A DNA stretch of 64,000 nucleotides, taken from positions 14,036 through 78,035 of the forward strand of contig SHVS01000006.1 of NCBI GenBank assembly GCA_009694135.1. The letters run 5' to 3'. Source of the stretch: Alphaproteobacteria bacterium. Its GTDB lineage: Bacteria > Pseudomonadota > Alphaproteobacteria > UBA6615. Below the pieces are notes generated by a model. That model was not told where the DNA came from and searched no databases. It saw only the letters and a program-made list of their open reading frames with translations. This document shows, one piece after another, positions 40,992-48,502 of the stretch (within the stretch, counting starts at the first letter, position 1; the number at the start of each line of letters is the position of its first letter). Made by a program: the position numbers and the translations under genes.

Positions 40992-41818
40992 CGACGCATC
41001 GTGCTCCGCTCAATCTGCTGCTCGGCGGCGGGCTGGTTGTCCTGCTTCTGGCGTCGGCCGCGCTGTCGCTCGTGTGGACGCCCTATGCGTATGATGCGAT
41101 CGACATCGCCGCGCGGCTTGATCCGCCGAGCGCGCGCCACTGGCTTGGCACCGACCCGTTCGGGCGTGACGTGCTGTCACGCATCCTTGTTGGCGCGCGC
41201 ATGTCGATCGCTGTCGGGTTTGTCGCGGTCGGCGTCGGGCTCTTGGCCGGGGTTGCGCTCGGCGGGCTGGCGGCGGCGCGGCGCGGCTGGGTAGACGAGT
41301 TGGTCATGGGGTCGAGCGATGTGGTGTTTGCCTTCCCGGCGATCCTCTCGGCGCTGCTGATCACCGTGACGCTCGGGCCCGGGGTCGTGAATGCCGTGCT
41401 TGCCATCGGCATTTTCAACATTCCGGTGTTCGCGCGCGTGACGCGGCGCGCCGCGCTTGGCATCTGGGCGATGGATTACGCCCGCGCCGCGGCGGCGCTC
41501 GGGCAGGGCGGCTTGGCGGTGACCTGGCGGCATGTGCTGCCCAATGTCGCGCCGCTGTTGATCGTGCAGGCGAGCGTGCAATTCGCGATCGCAATACTGG
41601 CCGAGGCGGCGCTGAGCTATCTCGGCCTTGGCGCGCAGCCGCCGATCCCGTCTTGGGGGCGGATGTTGTATGACGCGCAGACTCTGCTGGCGCTGCAACC
41701 AACGCTGGCGCTGTTCCCTGGGCTGGCGATCATGCTCGCCGTGCTTGGGCTCAATCTGCTCGGCGATGGGCTGGCTGATCGGCTCGACCCGCGTTTGCGT
41801 GCCGTGCGGCTGGTTTGA
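40988..41818 (+). CDS. ABC transporter permease (DppC-like)
   Basis: [34 protein letters not shown]. Confidence 0.9.
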
Positions 41819-41835
41819 TGTTTAAGGAACTAACG

Positions 41836-42938
41836 ATGACCCGCGCTCCGAGCGACTCACCCATCCTGCTCACACCCGGGCCATTGACCACGGCGCAAGC
41901 GGTGCGTGACGCCATGGCGCGCGACTGGGGCTCGCGCGACCCCGGCTTTATCGAACTCACCGCGCGTGTGCGCGCGGGCTTGGCGGGTTTGGTCGCGGCG
42001 GAGGAGGGTTTCACCGCCGTTCCGATCCAAGGCAGCGGAACCTTCGCCGTCGAGGCGATGCTCGGCACTTTCGTGCCGCCCAAAGGCCGGCTGCTGGTCG
42101 CGAGCAACGGTGCTTATGGCCGGCGCATGGCCAGCGCCAAGGGCGTGCGATTGCCATGCTGGAAAGCCCGGAAGAACAGCCGCTAGTCTGCTGCTGGCGC
42201 TGCGCGCGGACCCAGCCATCACCCATGTCGCCGTGGTGCATTGCGAGACCACCACCGGCGTCTTGAATCCGCTCGGAAAGATTGCGACTGCGGTCGGGCG
42301 CTACGGGCCGGCGACTCCTCGTCGATGCGATGCGCAGCCTCGGGGCGCTGCCGGTGAATGCACGCGATCCGATCGACGCCATCGCGGCTTCGGCCAATAA
42401 ATGCCTGGAAGGCGTGCCGGGCGTGGCTTTCGTGCTGGCGAGCGAGCGGGCGCTCATGGCGGCGCGCGGCCAGGCACCGTCGCTGAGCCTCGATTTGCAC
42501 GATCAATGGTCGGGCTTCGCTGAAAAGGGCGAATGGCGCTTCACCCCGCCGACGCAGGTCGTGGCCGCGCTGGCCGCTGCGCTCGACCGCCATGCGGCCG
42601 AAGGGGGTGTCGCCGCGCGTGGGGAGCGTTATCGGCAAAATTGTGCGGCGCTCATTACAGGCATGCGGGCGCTCGACTTCGCGCCGCTGCTCGCGCCCGC
42701 GCATCAGGCGCCGATCATCGTTACCTTCTGCATGCCGGCCGATCCGCGCTTCGCCTTCAAGCCGTTTTACGACCAATTGGCCGCGCGCGGGTTCCTGATC
42801 TACCCCGGCAAATTGACGGCCGGTCCGAGTTTCCGCATCGGCTGCATCGGCGCGATTGACGAGAGCGACATTCGGCTTGCGCTGGCGACCGTCGCCGCCA
42901 GCATGCAAGCGTTGGGGGTCGCGAGCGGCGCTCCTTAA
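41836..42938 (+). pseudogene. phnW: 2-aminoethylphosphonate aminotransferase (PhnW/AepZ-like), broken
   Basis: [61 protein letters not shown] spread over three frames, with deletion/shifts near 42130-42190 and 42300. Confidence 0.88.
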
Positions 42939-43620
42939 TTGCTCTGCAGGAATTCCTGAAAGCGGCGCGCCATCTGCGGCGGCGCAATCGTCGGGCGGCC
43001 AAGCTTGGCCAGTGCTCCGGGCGCGATCCGCAGATGGATCAGATGCGGCCCGTCGCTTGCCAATGCGTCGGTCAGCGCCGATGCGAAACCCGCCAGCTCA
43101 TCGACGCAGGTTCCACTCGCATAACCGCAAGCGAGAGCGACGTCGGCGAAATCAACGCTGGCTGACACGGTGCGCTGCCCGCCGGTCGAGTCATGCACGC
43201 CGTTGTCGAGCACCAGATGCACCAGGTTCTTCGGCGCGCGCGCTCCGATTGTGGCGCAATTGCCGAGCTTCATCAGCGCCGCCCCGTCGCCGTCGATGAC
43301 TACGACTGGTCGGGCGACATTGAGCGCGACGCCCAGCCCCATCGCCGCGGCGCAGCCCATCGAGCCGACCTGGTAGAGGTGCTGCGGCCGGTCATTGAGA
43401 GTGAACAGCTCGCGCCCGGTCTTGCCGGTCGTGGCGATCACCGCCGCGCGTTCGGGCAAGAGTTCCAGCAACCGCGTGAGCGCCGCCGCGAGCGTTGGCG
43501 CGATCTGAGCGGGCTGCTCGGGAAATAGCTGGTGGGCGACGCGCAGGACATCCAGGAGCGGGCCGGTCGCTTCGCCCATGAGCGCGTGCTGCGGCTCGTC
43601 CTTGAGCCCCGGTTCGCCGC
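42935..43620 (-). pseudogene. ppd: Phosphonopyruvate decarboxylase remnant (N-terminus and an internal segment deleted)
   Basis: RGEPGLKDEPQH..MG, ATTGKTGRELF, VGSMG, ThDP motif DGDGAALM...LDNGVHDSTGGQ. Confidence 0.85.
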
Positions 43621-44626
43621 GCACGTCGAGCATGCATTTCGGCCGGTCAAGCGTAAGCGCGCCCAGCGCCTCGCCACGCGACGCCGCCAGCACGATCGCG
43701 CGCGCGCGGCGCGACCGCGGTCAGGTAGTGGCGCTCGGCCTCGCGCAGCTCCGCGTCATTGGTCAGGGCAAAGACATCGCGCACGCTGGCAAGCTCGCCT
43801 TGGACGCCCGCGATGCCTTCGTCGCGCGCCATGCGTTGTGCGACCGCGCGCATCGCCTTGATGGATGCGCGCAGCGTTTGATTGCCCTCGATCGCCAATG
43901 ACACGCCCGCTTCGCGATAGCGTTCGGCCGGAGTATGCGCATAGGTCGTCGGCACGATCACCAGCGGGGCGCGTTAGGCCCAGAGCCGGGCGAAGGCAAG
44001 GATCTCACCGGCCGTCGGCGCCTTGGAATGGATCAGGATCGCGTCCGCTCCGGCGTCGTGATAGGCTGCGGCGCGTGCCAGAGCTTCATCAAGGCTGCGC
44101 CCGGCGATCAACGCCTCGACGCGCGCCACAAGAACGAAATCTGGATTGGTCTGGCTGTCCTTGCCGGCTTTGATCTTGCCGCAAACTCCTCGACGTCGGC
44201 TAACGGCTGCGCCTCGCCGATGAAGGAGTTGGTCCTGGGGAACAGCTTGTCCTCGATGCACACGCCGGCGATGCCGCGCTCGCAGAGCTTGCGCAGCAGC
44301 CGCCGCAGATTGTTGAAATTGCCGTAGCCCGTGTCGCCGTCGACTAAAATCGGGATGTTCGTCGCGTCCGCCATGAACTCGAGGGTCTCGAGCACCTGGG
44401 TCTAGGACGCTTCATTGCTGTCGCGCACGCCCATGGCGGCGGAGATCGCCAGCCCCGAGGCCCAGATGCCGGGAAAACCGGATTCCTCGACGATCTTGGC
44501 CGAAAGACCATTATGCGCCTCCATGATGAAGCGCAGACCGGGTCCGGCCAACAGCGAGCGCAGCGCCGCCGCCTTACCGATGCGGGCCGCGTGCGCCTCG
44601 ACCGCTTGCGATGAGAGCAGGCTCAT
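43621..44626 (-). pseudogene. ppm: PEP mutase with stump of a fused nucleotidyltransferase domain, broken
   Basis: [54 protein letters not shown]; TAG 44402-44404, TAA near 43975, shift near 44180; then IVLAASRG...DRPKCML. Confidence 0.9.
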
Positions 44627-44630
44627 CAGG

Positions 44631-44645
44631 CTAATTTCCGGTTAA
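44631..44645. promoter_or_regulatory. CtrA-like box upstream of ppm (TTAA-CCGGAAA-TTAG on minus strand)
   Basis: One mismatch to TTAA-N7-TTAA; ends 4 nt before the ppm ATG. Confidence 0.45.
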
Positions 44646-44704
44646 AGGTCATCGGGGCTACATAGCGCTGGTGTGCCGGCCTGTCCATGCGGGCCGATCA
44701 AAGA

Positions 44705-44732
44705 GAAACGGCGGTCCGTTTCCAGACCGCCG
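44705..44732 (-). terminator. Rho-independent terminator, copy 2
   Basis: Stem CGGCGGTC/GACCGCCG followed by TTTCTCTTT on the minus strand. Confidence 0.7.
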
Positions 44733-44769
44733 CAGGCGATGCGTTCAGGGAGCGCGCCGCCAAACAGGC

Positions 44770-44806
44770 AAAAAGCGAAACGGCGGTCCGTTGCCGGACC
44801 GCCGTT
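44770..44806 (-). terminator. Rho-independent terminator, copy 1, after the histone-like gene
   Basis: Perfect 12-bp stem AACGGCGGTCCG/CGGACCGCCGTT with 4-nt loop, then TCGCTTTTT. Confidence 0.8.
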
Positions 44807-44836
44807 GCGTATTCGAGTGCCGATCAGCTTGGGCCG

Positions 44837-45307
44837 CTAGATGATCTTGCGGCTGCCGAACCGGTCGTAAACGACGAGCGTTGGCCCGACAACAGGGGCC
44901 AAGTGGCCCCGTCGTGCAGAAGCCTTCTTTTTCGCCGAACTGCGTCGTGCGCCAGGCTTGCGCGTGGACGCCTTCTTGGAGCGCCGGGCAGTCTTGCGGA
45001 CGGCCTTGCGCGCACCCGTCTTGCGGACGGCTTTGCGAACGCCAGTCTTGCGTGCGCCGGCAGCGCGACGCGTGCTCGCGCGACGGCCGGCCGCCTTGCG
45101 GGTACCGGTCTTCGCTTTCGCGCGCCGCGTCGAAGTCTTACGCACGGCAGCCTTGGTCGACTTGCGCGTGGTCTTCTTCGACTTGACGCGACGGGTCGTC
45201 TTGACGCTGCTCGAGCGGGCAGACTTGCTCTTGCCAGCGCGAGACTTGGACCAACGCGACTTGGAAGTCTTGCTCATCTTACGCTTAGAAGTTTTGGCTC
45301 TAGCCAT
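44837..45307 (-). CDS. Highly basic histone-H1/protamine-like protein (156 aa)
   Basis: GGAGG RBS 8 nt before the ATG; 60 K+R, 1 acidic residue; RKAVRKTG repeats; own terminator. Confidence 0.8.
   Translation of the reverse strand: MARAKTSKRKMSKTSKSRWSKSRAGKSKSARSSSVKTTRRVKSKKTTRKSTKAAVRKTSTRRAKAKTGTRKAAGRRASTRRAAGARKTGVRKAVRKTGARKAVRKTARRSKKASTRKPGARRSSAKKKASARRGHLAPVVGPTLVVYDRFGSRKII
44991..45052. repeat. 27-bp imperfect tandem repeat (GTCTTGCGGACGGC...) inside the histone-like gene
   Basis: Encodes RKTGVRKAV-RKTGARKAV-RKT. Confidence 0.75.
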
Positions 45308-45367
45308 CTCTTGTCCCTCCGATTGACCAGCAGGCAAACCCCATCTCTCGGGTCAGAGAACGTTTCA

Positions 45368-45396
45368 TTAAGTTAACACTCTTAACGAAAGGTTAG
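45368..45396. promoter_or_regulatory. AT-rich promoter region with CtrA-like box (TTAA-CGAAAGG-TTAG) and two extra TTAA half-sites
   Basis: TTAA at 45368, 45373 and 45382; TTAG at 45393; 60-90 bp upstream of the histone-like gene. Confidence 0.55.
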
Positions 45397-45510
45397 ATTT
45401 CCATGGCTGGCGATACAGTTTTATTTCCCCCGCGCCGCGTAGATGGCGCGACAAGCACGACTTCTAATGTACGGAATGCCACGCGCACAAGCCCTACGCC
45501 ACTATTTCGC

Positions 45511-46752
45511 TTACGCGAACAGCGCCGAAATCCGCTGCAACAAAAATGTGACGCTGACAAAAAATCCTGTCATGGGAACCCAACGCGGCAGGTCGAGCGC
45601 GCCTTTGGGCGATGGTCCGCGTCGCTTGAGCGCGAGCAGCGCGAGGTTCATGAGCGCAAAAATTCCGAGCATGATCACTGAAGACGCGCGCGCCAGTGCC
45701 GCAAGCGGCAGCACAAGCGCGACGGCTGCGGTGATGCTGGAAACCAGCGCCGTCGCGAAGAGTGGCGTGCGCGTGCGCGTGTGCACGCTAGCCAATTCCT
45801 TCGGCAGCGCGTCTTGTCGTGCCAACCCATAGACGACGCGCGTCGCCATGATGATCATCACCAGCGCGCCATTGACGGTGGCGATGGCGGCGACGACGCT
45901 GAATGGCGCGGACGACATCCCGCTCGCGCGCTCGAACACGAGAGCAAGCGGCGCTGCCGAGGCGGCGAGCTCTGCCGGCGCGACGGTGAGCACGGCGATG
46001 CAGGTGATCGCGCCATAGAGCAGCGTGGTGATCAGCAGGGTTAGCATTATTGCCCGCGGGAGTGTCCGCGCCACGTCCTTTACTTCCTCGGCCAGATTGA
46101 CCATGGCCTCGAAGCCGATGAAGGCGAAGAAGGCAAGAAGTGTACTGCCAAGTATTGCGCTCCAGGCGGCAGTGGTCGCTGGCGGCAGCAATTCCGTGAG
46201 GCGAGAAGCAAGATCGGGAGTTCCGAACGCGCCGGCAAGTATGACCGCGATCAAGCCGCCTGTTTCCAAGACGGTGATCAACGCGATCATCAGGGTCGAT
46301 TCGACAATGCCCCAGGCAGCGAACAAACCGAGACCGAGAGTGATCGCGAGCAGCGTCGGAGCGCGCGGCAGCGGCAGCAGTTCCTGTATGTAACCGGTCG
46401 CGCCATTGATGATCGCGGCTGAAGACACGATCCCGGCCAAAGCGGTCAAAAGCCCGACCGCCAGGGCGAGATCGGCGCGACCGAAGGCTTCGCGGACATA
46501 AACCGCCTCGCCGCCGGCTTGCGGGTGGCGCGTGCCCAGCTCGGCGAAGGTCAGGCCGGTGAACAGGACAAGAATCGCGGCGACGAAGAATGACACCGGC
46601 GCGTACAGGCCGGAGGCGCCGGCCATGCTGCCGATCAGGACATAAATGCCGGCGCCTATGGTGGTACCAAGACCATAGAGCGTAAGCAGACCGAGGCCGA
46701 GACCGCGCTTGAGTTCCGCGCCACTCATCGCGTCGAGATTGAGACGATGCAT
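45511..46752 (-). CDS. APC-family amino acid permease
   Basis: GLGTTIGAGIY, AGGEAVYV, FFAFIGFE, RTRTP; multiple TM helices. Confidence 0.9.
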   Translation of the reverse strand: MHRLNLDAMSGAELKRGLGLGLLTLYGLGTTIGAGIYVLIGSMAGASGLYAPVSFFVAAILVLFTGLTFAELGTRHPQAGGEAVYVREAFGRADLALAVGLLTALAGIVSSAAIINGATGYIQELLPLPRAPTLLAITLGLGLFAAWGIVESTLMIALITVLETGGLIAVILAGAFGTPDLASRLTELLPPATTAAWSAILGSTLLAFFAFIGFEAMVNLAEEVKDVARTLPRAIMLTLLITTLLYGAITCIAVLTVAPAELAASAAPLALVFERASGMSSAPFSVVAAIATVNGALVMIIMATRVVYGLARQDALPKELASVHTRTRTPLFATALVSSITAAVALVLPLAALARASSVIMLGIFALMNLALLALKRRGPSPKGALDLPRWVPMTGFFVSVTFLLQRISALFA

Positions 46753-47103
46753 CTAAGGCTCGACGTGTGTCTTGACGTCGCCACGCTGGACACGAACGTA
46801 ATCCTCAAGCTGGCGCGTGATGGCGTCGAAGGCGTCGCGAATGGCGACATAGACGTCTTCATGCGCATGATCCTTCGACCCGTTGCGGTTGGCGACGAAT
46901 TCCTTGCCTGGAACGCTCAGGTCGATACGCACGCTATAGAGCTTGCCCTTGCGCGAGTGCCGGTGCGGCGCCTCGATCACCACGCGGCAGCCGATGATTC
47001 GGTCAAAAATATGGTCAAGCTTCCCCGCCCGTTCGCGCAACCGTTCCTCGACCGCGGGCGAATGGTCCATGTTGTGAAAGTCGATCTGCAACGAATTCTG
47101 CAC
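46753..47103 (-). CDS. HPF/RaiA-family ribosome hibernation protein
   Basis: QIDFHNMDHSPAVE...CRVVIEAPH...HEDVYVAIRDAFD...RQL; GGAG RBS before the GTG. Confidence 0.88.
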   Translation of the reverse strand: MQNSLQIDFHNMDHSPAVEERLRERAGKLDHIFDRIIGCRVVIEAPHRHSRKGKLYSVRIDLSVPGKEFVANRNGSKDHAHEDVYVAIRDAFDAITRQLEDYVRVQRGDVKTHVEP

Positions 47104-47197: not shown

Positions 47198-48502
47198 CTA
47201 AAGGTCGTAGGCGCTCTCCCCATGCGCCGTGAGGCCGAGGCCCTGGACCTCGGTCTCCTCTTCGACACGTAAGCCCACGGCCGCGCGCGTGACCGCGATG
47301 ATCGCAAGTGTCGCGATTGCCGACCAGGCGCCGACCGCGGCGAGCGCAAGCAGCTGCACGCCGAGTTGGCTGGCCATGGTCATGCCCTCGGCATAGCCGA
47401 CGCCGCCGAGCGCCTCGGAGGAGAGGAAGGCGAGCAGCACAGTGCCGAGCGCCCCGCCGACGCCATGCACGCCGAATACGTCGAGCGCGTCGTCGATCTT
47501 CAGCCGCTGCTTCACCAGCGCCGTGACCCAAAGGCAGACGACGCCGGCGGCGGCGCCGATGATCAGCGCGCCCACCGGCCCGATGAAGCCGGATGCCGGG
47601 GTGATGGTCGCAAGTCCGGCAACCGCGCCGGTGACGGCGCCGATAAGGCTCGGTTTGCCGAAGCGCTGCCATTCGATCGCCGCCCAGACAATGGCGCCGG
47701 TCGCGGCCGAAATATGCGTGACCAGTATCGCCATGCCGGCGGAGCCATTGGCCGCCACGGCCGAGCCGCCGTTGAACCCGAACCAGCCGATCCACAACAT
47801 GCAGGCGCCGGTCATCACCATGCCTGGGCTATGTGGCGGGCGCATCTCTCGGGGGAAGCCGCGGCGCGGTCCGAGCGATCGGGCAAGCAGCAGCGCCGAT
47901 ACGCCGGCGGTCAGATGCACGACGATGCCGCCGGCGTAATCGCGCACGTTCATTTGTGCCAGCCAGCCGCTCCCCCACACCCAATGCGCGACCGGAACAT
48001 AGACGAGCATAAGCCACAGCGCGCTGAACATTAGAACGGCCGCAAAGCGGATACGCTCGGGATAGGAGCCGATGATCAGCGCCGGGGTGATAATGGCGAA
48101 AGTCATCTGGAACATGAAATAGACGCTTTCCGGCAGCGTTGGCGCGAGATCGGACAGGGTTTCCGGGCGGATGCCGGCAAGAAAGGCCTTCGATAACCCG
48201 CCCAACAGCGGCGCATTGCCGTCAAAAGCGGGCGTGTAGCCGAAGGCAAGCCAAAGCACCGACACGATGCAGGCGACGGCAAAGCAGTGCATCAAAACGG
48301 ACAAAACATTAATCGAGCGGACCAGCCCGCCGTAAAACAGCGCCAGCCCGGGCAGAGTCATAAAGAGTACGAGGGCGGTGGCGGTGATCATCCAGGCGGT
48401 ATCGCCACTGTCGAGACCCGTGGCCCAGGCCGGTGCCGTCGAAAGTCCCAGCGCCAGGCCGGCGCCGAACACCGATCGTACGATATCCCGAGCAAGCCGC
48501 AT
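47198..48502 (-). CDS. amtB: Ammonium transporter (no adjacent glnK)
   Basis: DTAW, PGLALFYGG, FQMTFAIIT, HWVWG, DYAGG.VVH, GWFGFNGGS, DVFGVHG. Confidence 0.95.
   Translation of the reverse strand: MRLARDIVRSVFGAGLALGLSTAPAWATGLDSGDTAWMITATALVLFMTLPGLALFYGGLVRSINVLSVLMHCFAVACIVSVLWLAFGYTPAFDGNAPLLGGLSKAFLAGIRPETLSDLAPTLPESVYFMFQMTFAIITPALIIGSYPERIRFAAVLMFSALWLMLVYVPVAHWVWGSGWLAQMNVRDYAGGIVVHLTAGVSALLLARSLGPRRGFPREMRPPHSPGMVMTGACMLWIGWFGFNGGSAVAANGSAGMAILVTHISAATGAIVWAAIEWQRFGKPSLIGAVTGAVAGLATITPASGFIGPVGALIIGAAAGVVCLWVTALVKQRLKIDDALDVFGVHGVGGALGTVLLAFLSSEALGGVGYAEGMTMASQLGVQLLALAAVGAWSAIATLAIIAVTRAAVGLRVEEETEVQGLGLTAHGESAYDL

Follow-up and report, generated by a model that had tools for sequence, protein, structure and literature searches.

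A histone H1/Hc2-type basic protein with a conserved C-terminal hairpin motif in uncultured Alphaproteobacteria

Introduction

Most of the known histone H1/Hc2-like polycations come from Chlamydia, Coxiella, Pseudomonas and Burkholderiales, and Hc2 has a role in nucleoid condensation. A small, extremely basic protein is encoded in a 64,000-nt stretch of DNA from an Alphaproteobacteria bacterium (GenBank assembly GCA_009694135.1, contig SHVS01000006.1; the whole stretch is hereafter called the window). The locus raises three questions: whether the repetitive reading frame is a gene at all, to what type of protein its product belongs, and what that product binds and under whose control. A preliminary description made from the letters of the window had answered the last question with a DNA-condensing protein timed by the cell-cycle regulator CtrA. 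Here we report a computational analysis of the gene, its relatives and its upstream region.

Results and discussion

An intact gene for a very basic protein

The reverse-strand frame at 44837-45307 is intact and represents a real gene, whose product is very basic. The gene and its immediate surroundings carry the following features.

44837-45307 (-), coding sequence of the 156-aa basic protein, from the ORF and its codon-position bias against the ortholog L059; start ATG at 45307-45305, stop (included) at 44837-44839
44879-45304 (-), body rich in K/R/S/T/A and predicted to be disordered, residues 2-143, which contains the 27-nt repeat array; from composition and AlphaFold2
44840-44878 (-), C-terminal motif LVVYDRFGSRKII, residues 144-156, predicted beta-hairpin; from conservation over 34 loci and AlphaFold2
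45315-45320 (-), Shine-Dalgarno sequence GGAGGG, 7 nt 5' of the ATG
44779-44806 (-), terminator hairpin 1 with a T-run, predicted
44708-44733 (-), terminator hairpin 2 with a T-run, predicted, a near-duplicate of hairpin 1

Much of what the preliminary description had read from this gene could be verified, namely the intact 156-aa frame, the GGAGG ribosome-binding site (GGAGGG at 45320-45315), the many Ser and Thr residues and the short non-repetitive C-terminal tail as it was quoted. Script counts equalled the earlier hand counts: the protein has 30 Lys and 30 Arg (60 of 156 residues, 38.5%), a single acidic residue (Asp; Glu is absent), 38 Ser plus Thr (21 and 17, respectively) and 24 Ala, which gives a net charge of about +59 across 156 residues. 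The RKAVRKTG repeats form a tandem array at 44989-45052, where Tandem Repeats Finder reports a 27-nt unit in 2.4 copies with 83% matches. The two terminators are also there, as near-identical hairpins with T-runs 3' of the stop codon. They lie 73 nt apart (44708-44806), their 15-nt core was found nowhere else in the assembly, and an Rfam search of 44600-45700 gave only sub-threshold matches, on these hairpins. Contigs from a second study cover parts of the basic ORF and are identical to it there.

Two close orthologs were compared with the window gene. The metagenome contig L059 encodes a 158-aa ortholog with 109 of 148 aligned residues identical (74%) and has the same permease gene upstream as the window. 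Differences between the two genes are distributed 31/22/52 over the three codon positions, so that third positions change most, and the codon differences comprise 32 synonymous and 39 non-synonymous ones. The second, L036, is a syntenic ortholog in the 4.6-Mb genome G423, with a tail identical to that of the window protein, LVVYDRFGSRKII. It stands directly before an intact 554-aa PEP mutase/NTP-transferase gene (pepM), in the same way as the window gene stands before a pepM remnant. The Shine-Dalgarno sequence is kept in L059, L036, L029, L025 and L026.

An antisense ORF of 229 aa (44687-45376, +) spans the whole gene as a by-product of the repeat composition, and homolog loci have similar antisense ORFs. 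It is very unlikely that the sense frame is only a chance-open frame in a repetitive GC-rich stretch or that the antisense ORF is the real gene: the antisense ORF is the longer of the two, and an exact look-up in a collection of 15 billion proteins found neither the product, nor its TTG-start form, nor the antisense ORF, but the tail motif is kept at the amino-acid level in 34 loci with synonymous codon variation and a fixed stop distance, a correctly spaced Shine-Dalgarno sequence stands upstream of the ATG, the terminators are placed on the sense side, and the third-position bias falls in the sense frame. Because that collection holds neither the true product nor the antisense ORF, gene callers may skip or mis-strand genes of the group described below.

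A C-terminal motif that defines a small group

The window protein ends in PTLVVYDRFGSRKII with the stop codon directly after it, which places the pattern [PS][ST][ILM]VVYDRFGxRx[IV][AIV] at its exact C-terminus. The first match to this tail came from a six-frame search of 40 relatives, as a repeat ORF ending in ...PVLVVYDRFGGRRVA in a genome of another GTDB family (G025); no ortholog was found among the 24 same-family genomes in that search. Degenerate DNA for VVYDRFG was then scanned over 401 class-level genomes with the reversed pattern as control, and hit six places in five genomes, five of the six being repeat ORFs, against two places for the control. A longer pattern, scanned against all GTDB species genomes and JGI metagenome contigs, gave 19 matches with 12 family ORFs and 29 matches with 22 family ORFs, respectively. 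These degenerate-DNA scans yielded 34 loci at which a K/R/A/T-repeat ORF terminates in [ILM]VVYDRFGxRxxx exactly at the C-terminus, some of them duplicates of one another (25 distinct tail DNAs among the 27 tabulated).

The stop codon falls exactly 13 codons past the first motif residue in 34 of 34 family ORFs and in 0 of 14 non-family pattern matches. That VVYDRFGxR never varies is in part built into the search, since this pattern was the means of retrieving the loci. Three properties were not imposed by it: all synonymous codons are used at the constrained tail positions, the flanks are conserved (P/S at -15, S/T at -14, I/V at -2 and A/I/V/M at -1), and the stop codon has a fixed place after the tail. 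The group is further characterized by a K/R/A/T(S)-rich body in which acidic residues number a few at most, as found in the window protein (K+R 38.5%, D+E = 1). Among members K+R ranges from 36 to 46%, length runs from 149 to 315 aa with differing amounts of repeat sequence, and 16 of 18 full-length proteins have no acidic residue other than the motif Asp. The hosts of the 34 loci are mostly Alphaproteobacteria MAGs by title, or unnamed metagenome contigs; titled carrier records are MAGs labelled Alphaproteobacteria, Rhodospirillaceae, Sneathiellales or Proteobacteria.

Homologous-protein searches with the whole window protein and with residues 112-156 gave no matches, and a PHROGs search with the window protein gave none either. 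Diverged members, if any, would go unseen, because a profile of 11 tails run against 1.84 billion representative proteins added only one 42-aa fragment of the L029 type, together with one spurious repeat protein. In the literature searched we found neither VVYDRFG nor such a protein in Alphaproteobacteria. We concluded that the tail defines a coherent small group in uncultured Alphaproteobacteria that is present in no library or paper searched. Away from the C-terminus and on its own, the motif is not diagnostic. By chance, the N-terminus of a zinc-type alcohol dehydrogenase/quinone oxidoreductase (L016) contains VVYDRFG, as do internal stretches of unrelated proteins (L037 and other non-family matches).

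A body of the HC2 type, predicted to be disordered

The window protein is a disordered polycation of the bacterial histone-H1/Hc2 type. By itself it has no Pfam family match even at E ≤ 10 and stays below the gathering cut-off of PF07382 (HC2, 40 bits); its only NCBIfam match is to NF038053 (hist_H1_lk_Burk) at 9.8 bits (E = 0.85) against a cut-off of 80, a likeness to the Burkholderiales histone H1-like protein in composition only. PF07382 was matched at E ≤ 0.01 by 14 of 15 aligned group members, and 7 of 10 tested relatives passed its cut-off, with the following scores in bits.

Above the cut-off: L036 201.4, L066 86.9, L029 86.0, L044 83.9, L019 80.8, L021 65.6, L069 48.5
Below the cut-off: L047 36.5, L049 28.4, L059 21.1

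The earlier idea of a protamine/H1-like polycation is thus borne out both by composition and by these same-tail relatives. The accompanying remark that no described equivalent was recognized holds for the tail-defined group, which is undescribed in the libraries and papers searched, and fails for the basic body, which falls in Pfam HC2. The HC2 matches of the relatives cover the repeats only, not the tail, and have no alignable unique region in common with Hc2. Resting as they do on low-complexity repeats, they may reflect convergence rather than descent.

AlphaFold2, run with a 15-row alignment, returned coil throughout (mean pLDDT 56) save in the tail, where strands at residues 145-147 and 153-155 (pLDDT 73-78) form a beta-hairpin. 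A four-copy complex prediction of the 40-residue tail scored 0.01 and returned no answer, which counts as evidence in neither direction. The best ESM Atlas values, which serve as leads only, were to unnamed clusters, at 0.89 with the whole protein and 0.80 with the tail, and an HC2 cluster reached 0.87.

Comparison with known basic proteins

The closest likeness in body is to chlamydial Hc2 (HctB; PF07382). Both are repetitive, rich in K/R/A/T and nearly free of acidic residues, both lack a globular domain and vary in length by repeats, and 7 of 10 same-tail relatives score 48-201 bits against the cut-off of 40. They differ in that the window protein goes undetected by the model, that all tail-defined members have the conserved 13-residue C-terminal hairpin outside the HC2 match, and that the tail-group hosts, judged by title or GTDB class, are not Chlamydiota but Alphaproteobacteria of free-living type, recovered from metagenomes of freshwater and of other origin.

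The L021 homolog, used as query, retrieved 28 proteins, each with PF07382 and 14 of them also with the HU domain PF00216; the repeat module is therefore often appended to DNA-binding proteins. Such HU-family proteins with HC2-type C-terminal extensions, as in actinobacterial HupB/Hlp, use nearly the same repeat units (TTARK, PARK), but the HU fold is absent from the window protein and the VVYDRFG tail is absent from all 28 proteins. With eukaryotic linker histone H1 and protamines the window protein shares charge density and the disorder of the H1 C-terminal domain. Unlike linker histone H1 it has no winged-helix globular domain (none was found by Pfam, and the AlphaFold2 model has no such fold), and unlike a protamine it is not Arg-dominated (30 Lys, 30 Arg).

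What the protein may bind

Our best reading, in which our confidence is moderate, is that of a nucleic-acid-binding disordered polycation whose hairpin would serve for docking or self-association. The target of the K/R-rich body would be nucleic acid of any sequence, most likely the chromosomal DNA, and by neutralizing charge the body would compact or coat the polymer. The 13-residue C-terminal beta-hairpin, apparently the only part under strict sequence constraint, would give a specific contact, either self-association, which would turn the polycation into a bridging protein, or docking onto a partner. The gene is probably monocistronic with its own terminators, and its conserved leader, through which regulation may run, suggests tight control of a potentially toxic product. 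Five carrier genomes were inspected for other polyanions: PPK1 was detected in three of the five, PPK2 in one and PhaC in two, and none of the three was found in the present assembly, which is 79% complete. As the carriers do not share these enzymes, nucleic acid is the only polyanion certainly common to them, a weak argument given that the genomes are incomplete.

The same composition would suit an RNA- or ribosome-binding disordered protein acting as a translation regulator, RNA chaperone or hibernation helper, a reading that we consider unlikely. A disordered H1-like region of PhaF is reported to bind RNA and activate translation (PMC12818456); a gene for the ribosome-hibernation factor HPF/RaiA (46753-47103) lies two genes away, and charge alone cannot let a polycation tell DNA from RNA. 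Against this, the neighbours of the gene change from lineage to lineage: only the L029/L025/L026 lineage has a DsbA-like gene in common, pepM follows in another lineage, and a cross-lineage comparison found no neighbour gene common to all lineages. Moreover, no ribosomal or RNA-binding domain was found with Pfam and NCBIfam, and a PDB profile search returned only low-complexity matches to bL9 (E ≥ 0.31, the best at 0.31).

Slightly less probable again is a granule scaffold resembling AlgP, PhaF or PhaM, in which the body would bind polyphosphate or tether PHA granules to the nucleoid and the hairpin would hold the granule or an enzyme. Polyphosphate is bound by any polycation, three of the five carrier genomes have PPK1, and the H1-like AlgP of Pseudomonas is reported to be located on polyphosphate granules, which it spaces (PMC9239181; cited in PMC13052382). 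What these proteins have in common with the window protein is a basic, repetitive region that is disordered and of a kind reported to bind polyanions (PMC9239181 and PMC12818456). Theirs, however, is a basic tail joined to a sizeable second domain, whereas the window protein consists of repeat plus 13 non-repeat residues, with the N-terminal phasin/AlgP-like domain absent. Nor are ppk and phaC common to the tail-group carriers: PPK1 and PPK2 are missing from G427 and PhaC from G423 and G426, all incomplete MAGs, and the failure to find PPK1, PPK2 and PhaC in the present assembly is likewise weak evidence from an incomplete genome.

The upstream region and the question of CtrA

Upstream of the coding sequence the following features were located.

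45308-45404 (-), conserved leader/promoter-proximal region of about 97 nt, ~89% identical to L059
45368-45385 (-), cluster of three TTAA starting 78, 69 and 64 nt before the ATG; L059 retains two of them
45382-45396 (-), CTAAC-CTTTCG-TTAA(G) element, which is the TTAA-N7-TTAG box, 75-89 nt before the ATG
45461-45494 (-), second block conserved in the alignment with L059 (GGGCTTGTG...CATTAGAAG), a possible promoter

The leader is more alike between the window and L059 (about 89% identity) than the coding sequence (76%). It clearly matters; it may act as promoter, as operator or at the RNA level. A consensus fold of the two sequences paired the Shine-Dalgarno sequence with the AUG, with no compensatory changes. 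The matching leader/upstream stretch of L059 lies at 1415-1576 of that contig and is more conserved than its coding sequence. A sigma-70 scan of 44400-45700 in the window did not find a promoter-like site. In the L021 clade, an almost invariant upstream region of ~200 nt has a promoter-like pair, TTGACT...TAGAAT, ahead of GTAAC-N6-GTAAC.

The AT-rich upstream region with three TTAA and a TTAA-N7-TTAG box, on which the proposal of CtrA timing was built, is present as described: GC is 0.46-0.48 at 45300-45449 against 0.65-0.66 for the genome and the window. The 1.6-Mb assembly has only 891 TTAA and 5 perfect TTAA-N7-TTAA sites; the window has no perfect box and 6 boxes with one mismatch, against 1.16 expected from shuffles. 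The specific claim of a CtrA-timed condenser nevertheless came out mostly negative, on two lines of evidence.

The first line concerns the site. The proposed check, that homologs keep the TTAA-N7-TTAA box, went against the proposal: in the 320 nt upstream of the five full-length homologs tested, the box with at most one mismatch was found in none; the close ortholog L059 keeps the one-mismatch form ATAA-N7-TTAA. L036 and the L021 clade carry GTAA-N7-GTAA, and across four lineages the first half-site begins with C, A or G, never with T. Instead of the canonical box, an element nTAAC-N6-kTAA recurs upstream of the window gene, L059, L036 and the L021 clade, a pattern read post hoc from the same sequences in which it was counted. 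The individual forms are as follows.

Window: CTAACCTTTCGTTAA
L059: ATAACCTTTCGTTAA
L036: GTAACCATTTAGTAA
L021 clade: GTAACTTTTTGGTAA

TAAC-N6-kTAA has 10 occurrences in the whole assembly with both strands counted. By k-mer count, seven of the nine upstream sets contain a TTTnGTAA core, a number that none of 30 shuffles attained. Readings of the element as an EcfG-type, sigma-54, LexA (GTTC-N7-GTTC) or sigma-70 site were discarded by eye for wrong spacing or letters.

The second line concerns the regulator, for which we used model NF045991 with its cut-off of 350 bits, passed by a Caulobacter control genome. In this assembly nothing exceeded the cut-off; the best match, at 178.2 bits, is a regulator that fits PmrA/QseB-type models better. 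Because the assembly is 79% complete, the absence of CtrA is likely, not proven. CtrA exceeded the cut-off in two of five other carrier genomes, those of L021 and L034 (419-421 bits), and was not found over it in the remaining three (the 4.6-Mb G423, which holds L036, G426 and G427). Within the GTDB family of the window CtrA is patchy, with 12 of 31 genomes over the cut-off, and nine same-family genomes of 97-100% completeness, most of them among the smaller, lack it.

A cell-cycle- or dormancy-timed nucleoid condenser activated by CtrA~P at the TTAA-N7-TTAG box and the TTAA half-sites is thus very improbable. In its favour one can cite the one-mismatch box (75-89 nt before the ATG) and the three adjacent TTAA, the likewise one-mismatch form in L059, the CtrA of the L021/L034 genomes, and GTAACCAT at the same place in L036, which agrees in 7 of 8 letters with the CtrA half-motif TTAACCAT. 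These points are set against the missing regulator and the variable first half-site given above, and the element may furthermore sit within the transcribed leader. We concluded that CtrA control of the gene is not supported, there being no good sign of it among these data.

A frame junction between body and tail in a sister lineage

At L025, L026, L054, L055 and L064 (five of five loci, about three sequence types) body and tail lie in different frames. An A8 run stands at the body/tail junction, 90-101 nt before the tail-frame stop; the body frame stops 1-2 codons past the run, and the conserved tail is in the -1 frame. The tails of L025 and L026 differ by five synonymous changes and one non-synonymous change, and the tail is thus evidently translated. 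The junction could be explained by -1 frameshifting at A AAA AAA/G, by slippage in the transcript or by a homopolymer length that is systematically miscalled.

A more speculative extension of the nucleic-acid reading, to which we give a low probability, is that the hairpin serves as a switchable cross-linking or docking module that makes the protein bridge the nucleoid or tether a partner, with the dose of tailed protein set by the structured leader in the window and by -1 frameshifting or slippage at A8 in the sister lineage. If true, a hairpin switch with a controlled dose of tailed protein would represent a novel way of regulating chromatin proteins in bacteria. The conserved C-terminal hairpin also offers a handle on what such disordered proteins attach to. 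Hc2-type nucleoid proteins may be under-counted in metagenomes, because the products are absent from two very large protein collections and gene callers apparently miss the genes.

Neighbouring genes and a decayed phosphonate region

Just upstream on the same strand as the basic-protein gene lie the HPF/RaiA ribosome-hibernation gene (46753-47103) and an ammonium transporter gene (47198-48502), with an amino-acid permease between the basic-protein gene and HPF/RaiA; this arrangement is not conserved in other lineages. At locus L038 (G000:C7:56466-59693), one frame encodes a DegP/HtrA-type protease (residues 2-407) together with an OmpR-type response regulator without the first ~40 receiver residues, which may be a fusion, a deletion or a mis-assembly.

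The preliminary description had also set the intact basic gene against decayed phosphonate genes next to it, and for pepM the decay is confirmed. Compared with the intact 554-aa ortholog beside L036, the remnant has a TAG at 44402-44404 in place of the Trp of the ortholog, a second stop (TAA) at about 43973-43975 and at least two frame changes, and it has lost most of the NTP-transferase part; contigs from the second study show the same letters at both stops. Elsewhere in the phosphonate region (41815-44626), a TPP-decarboxylase-like ORF (42935-43693) and aminotransferase-like ORFs (41815-42186 and 42282-42938) look fragmented as well.
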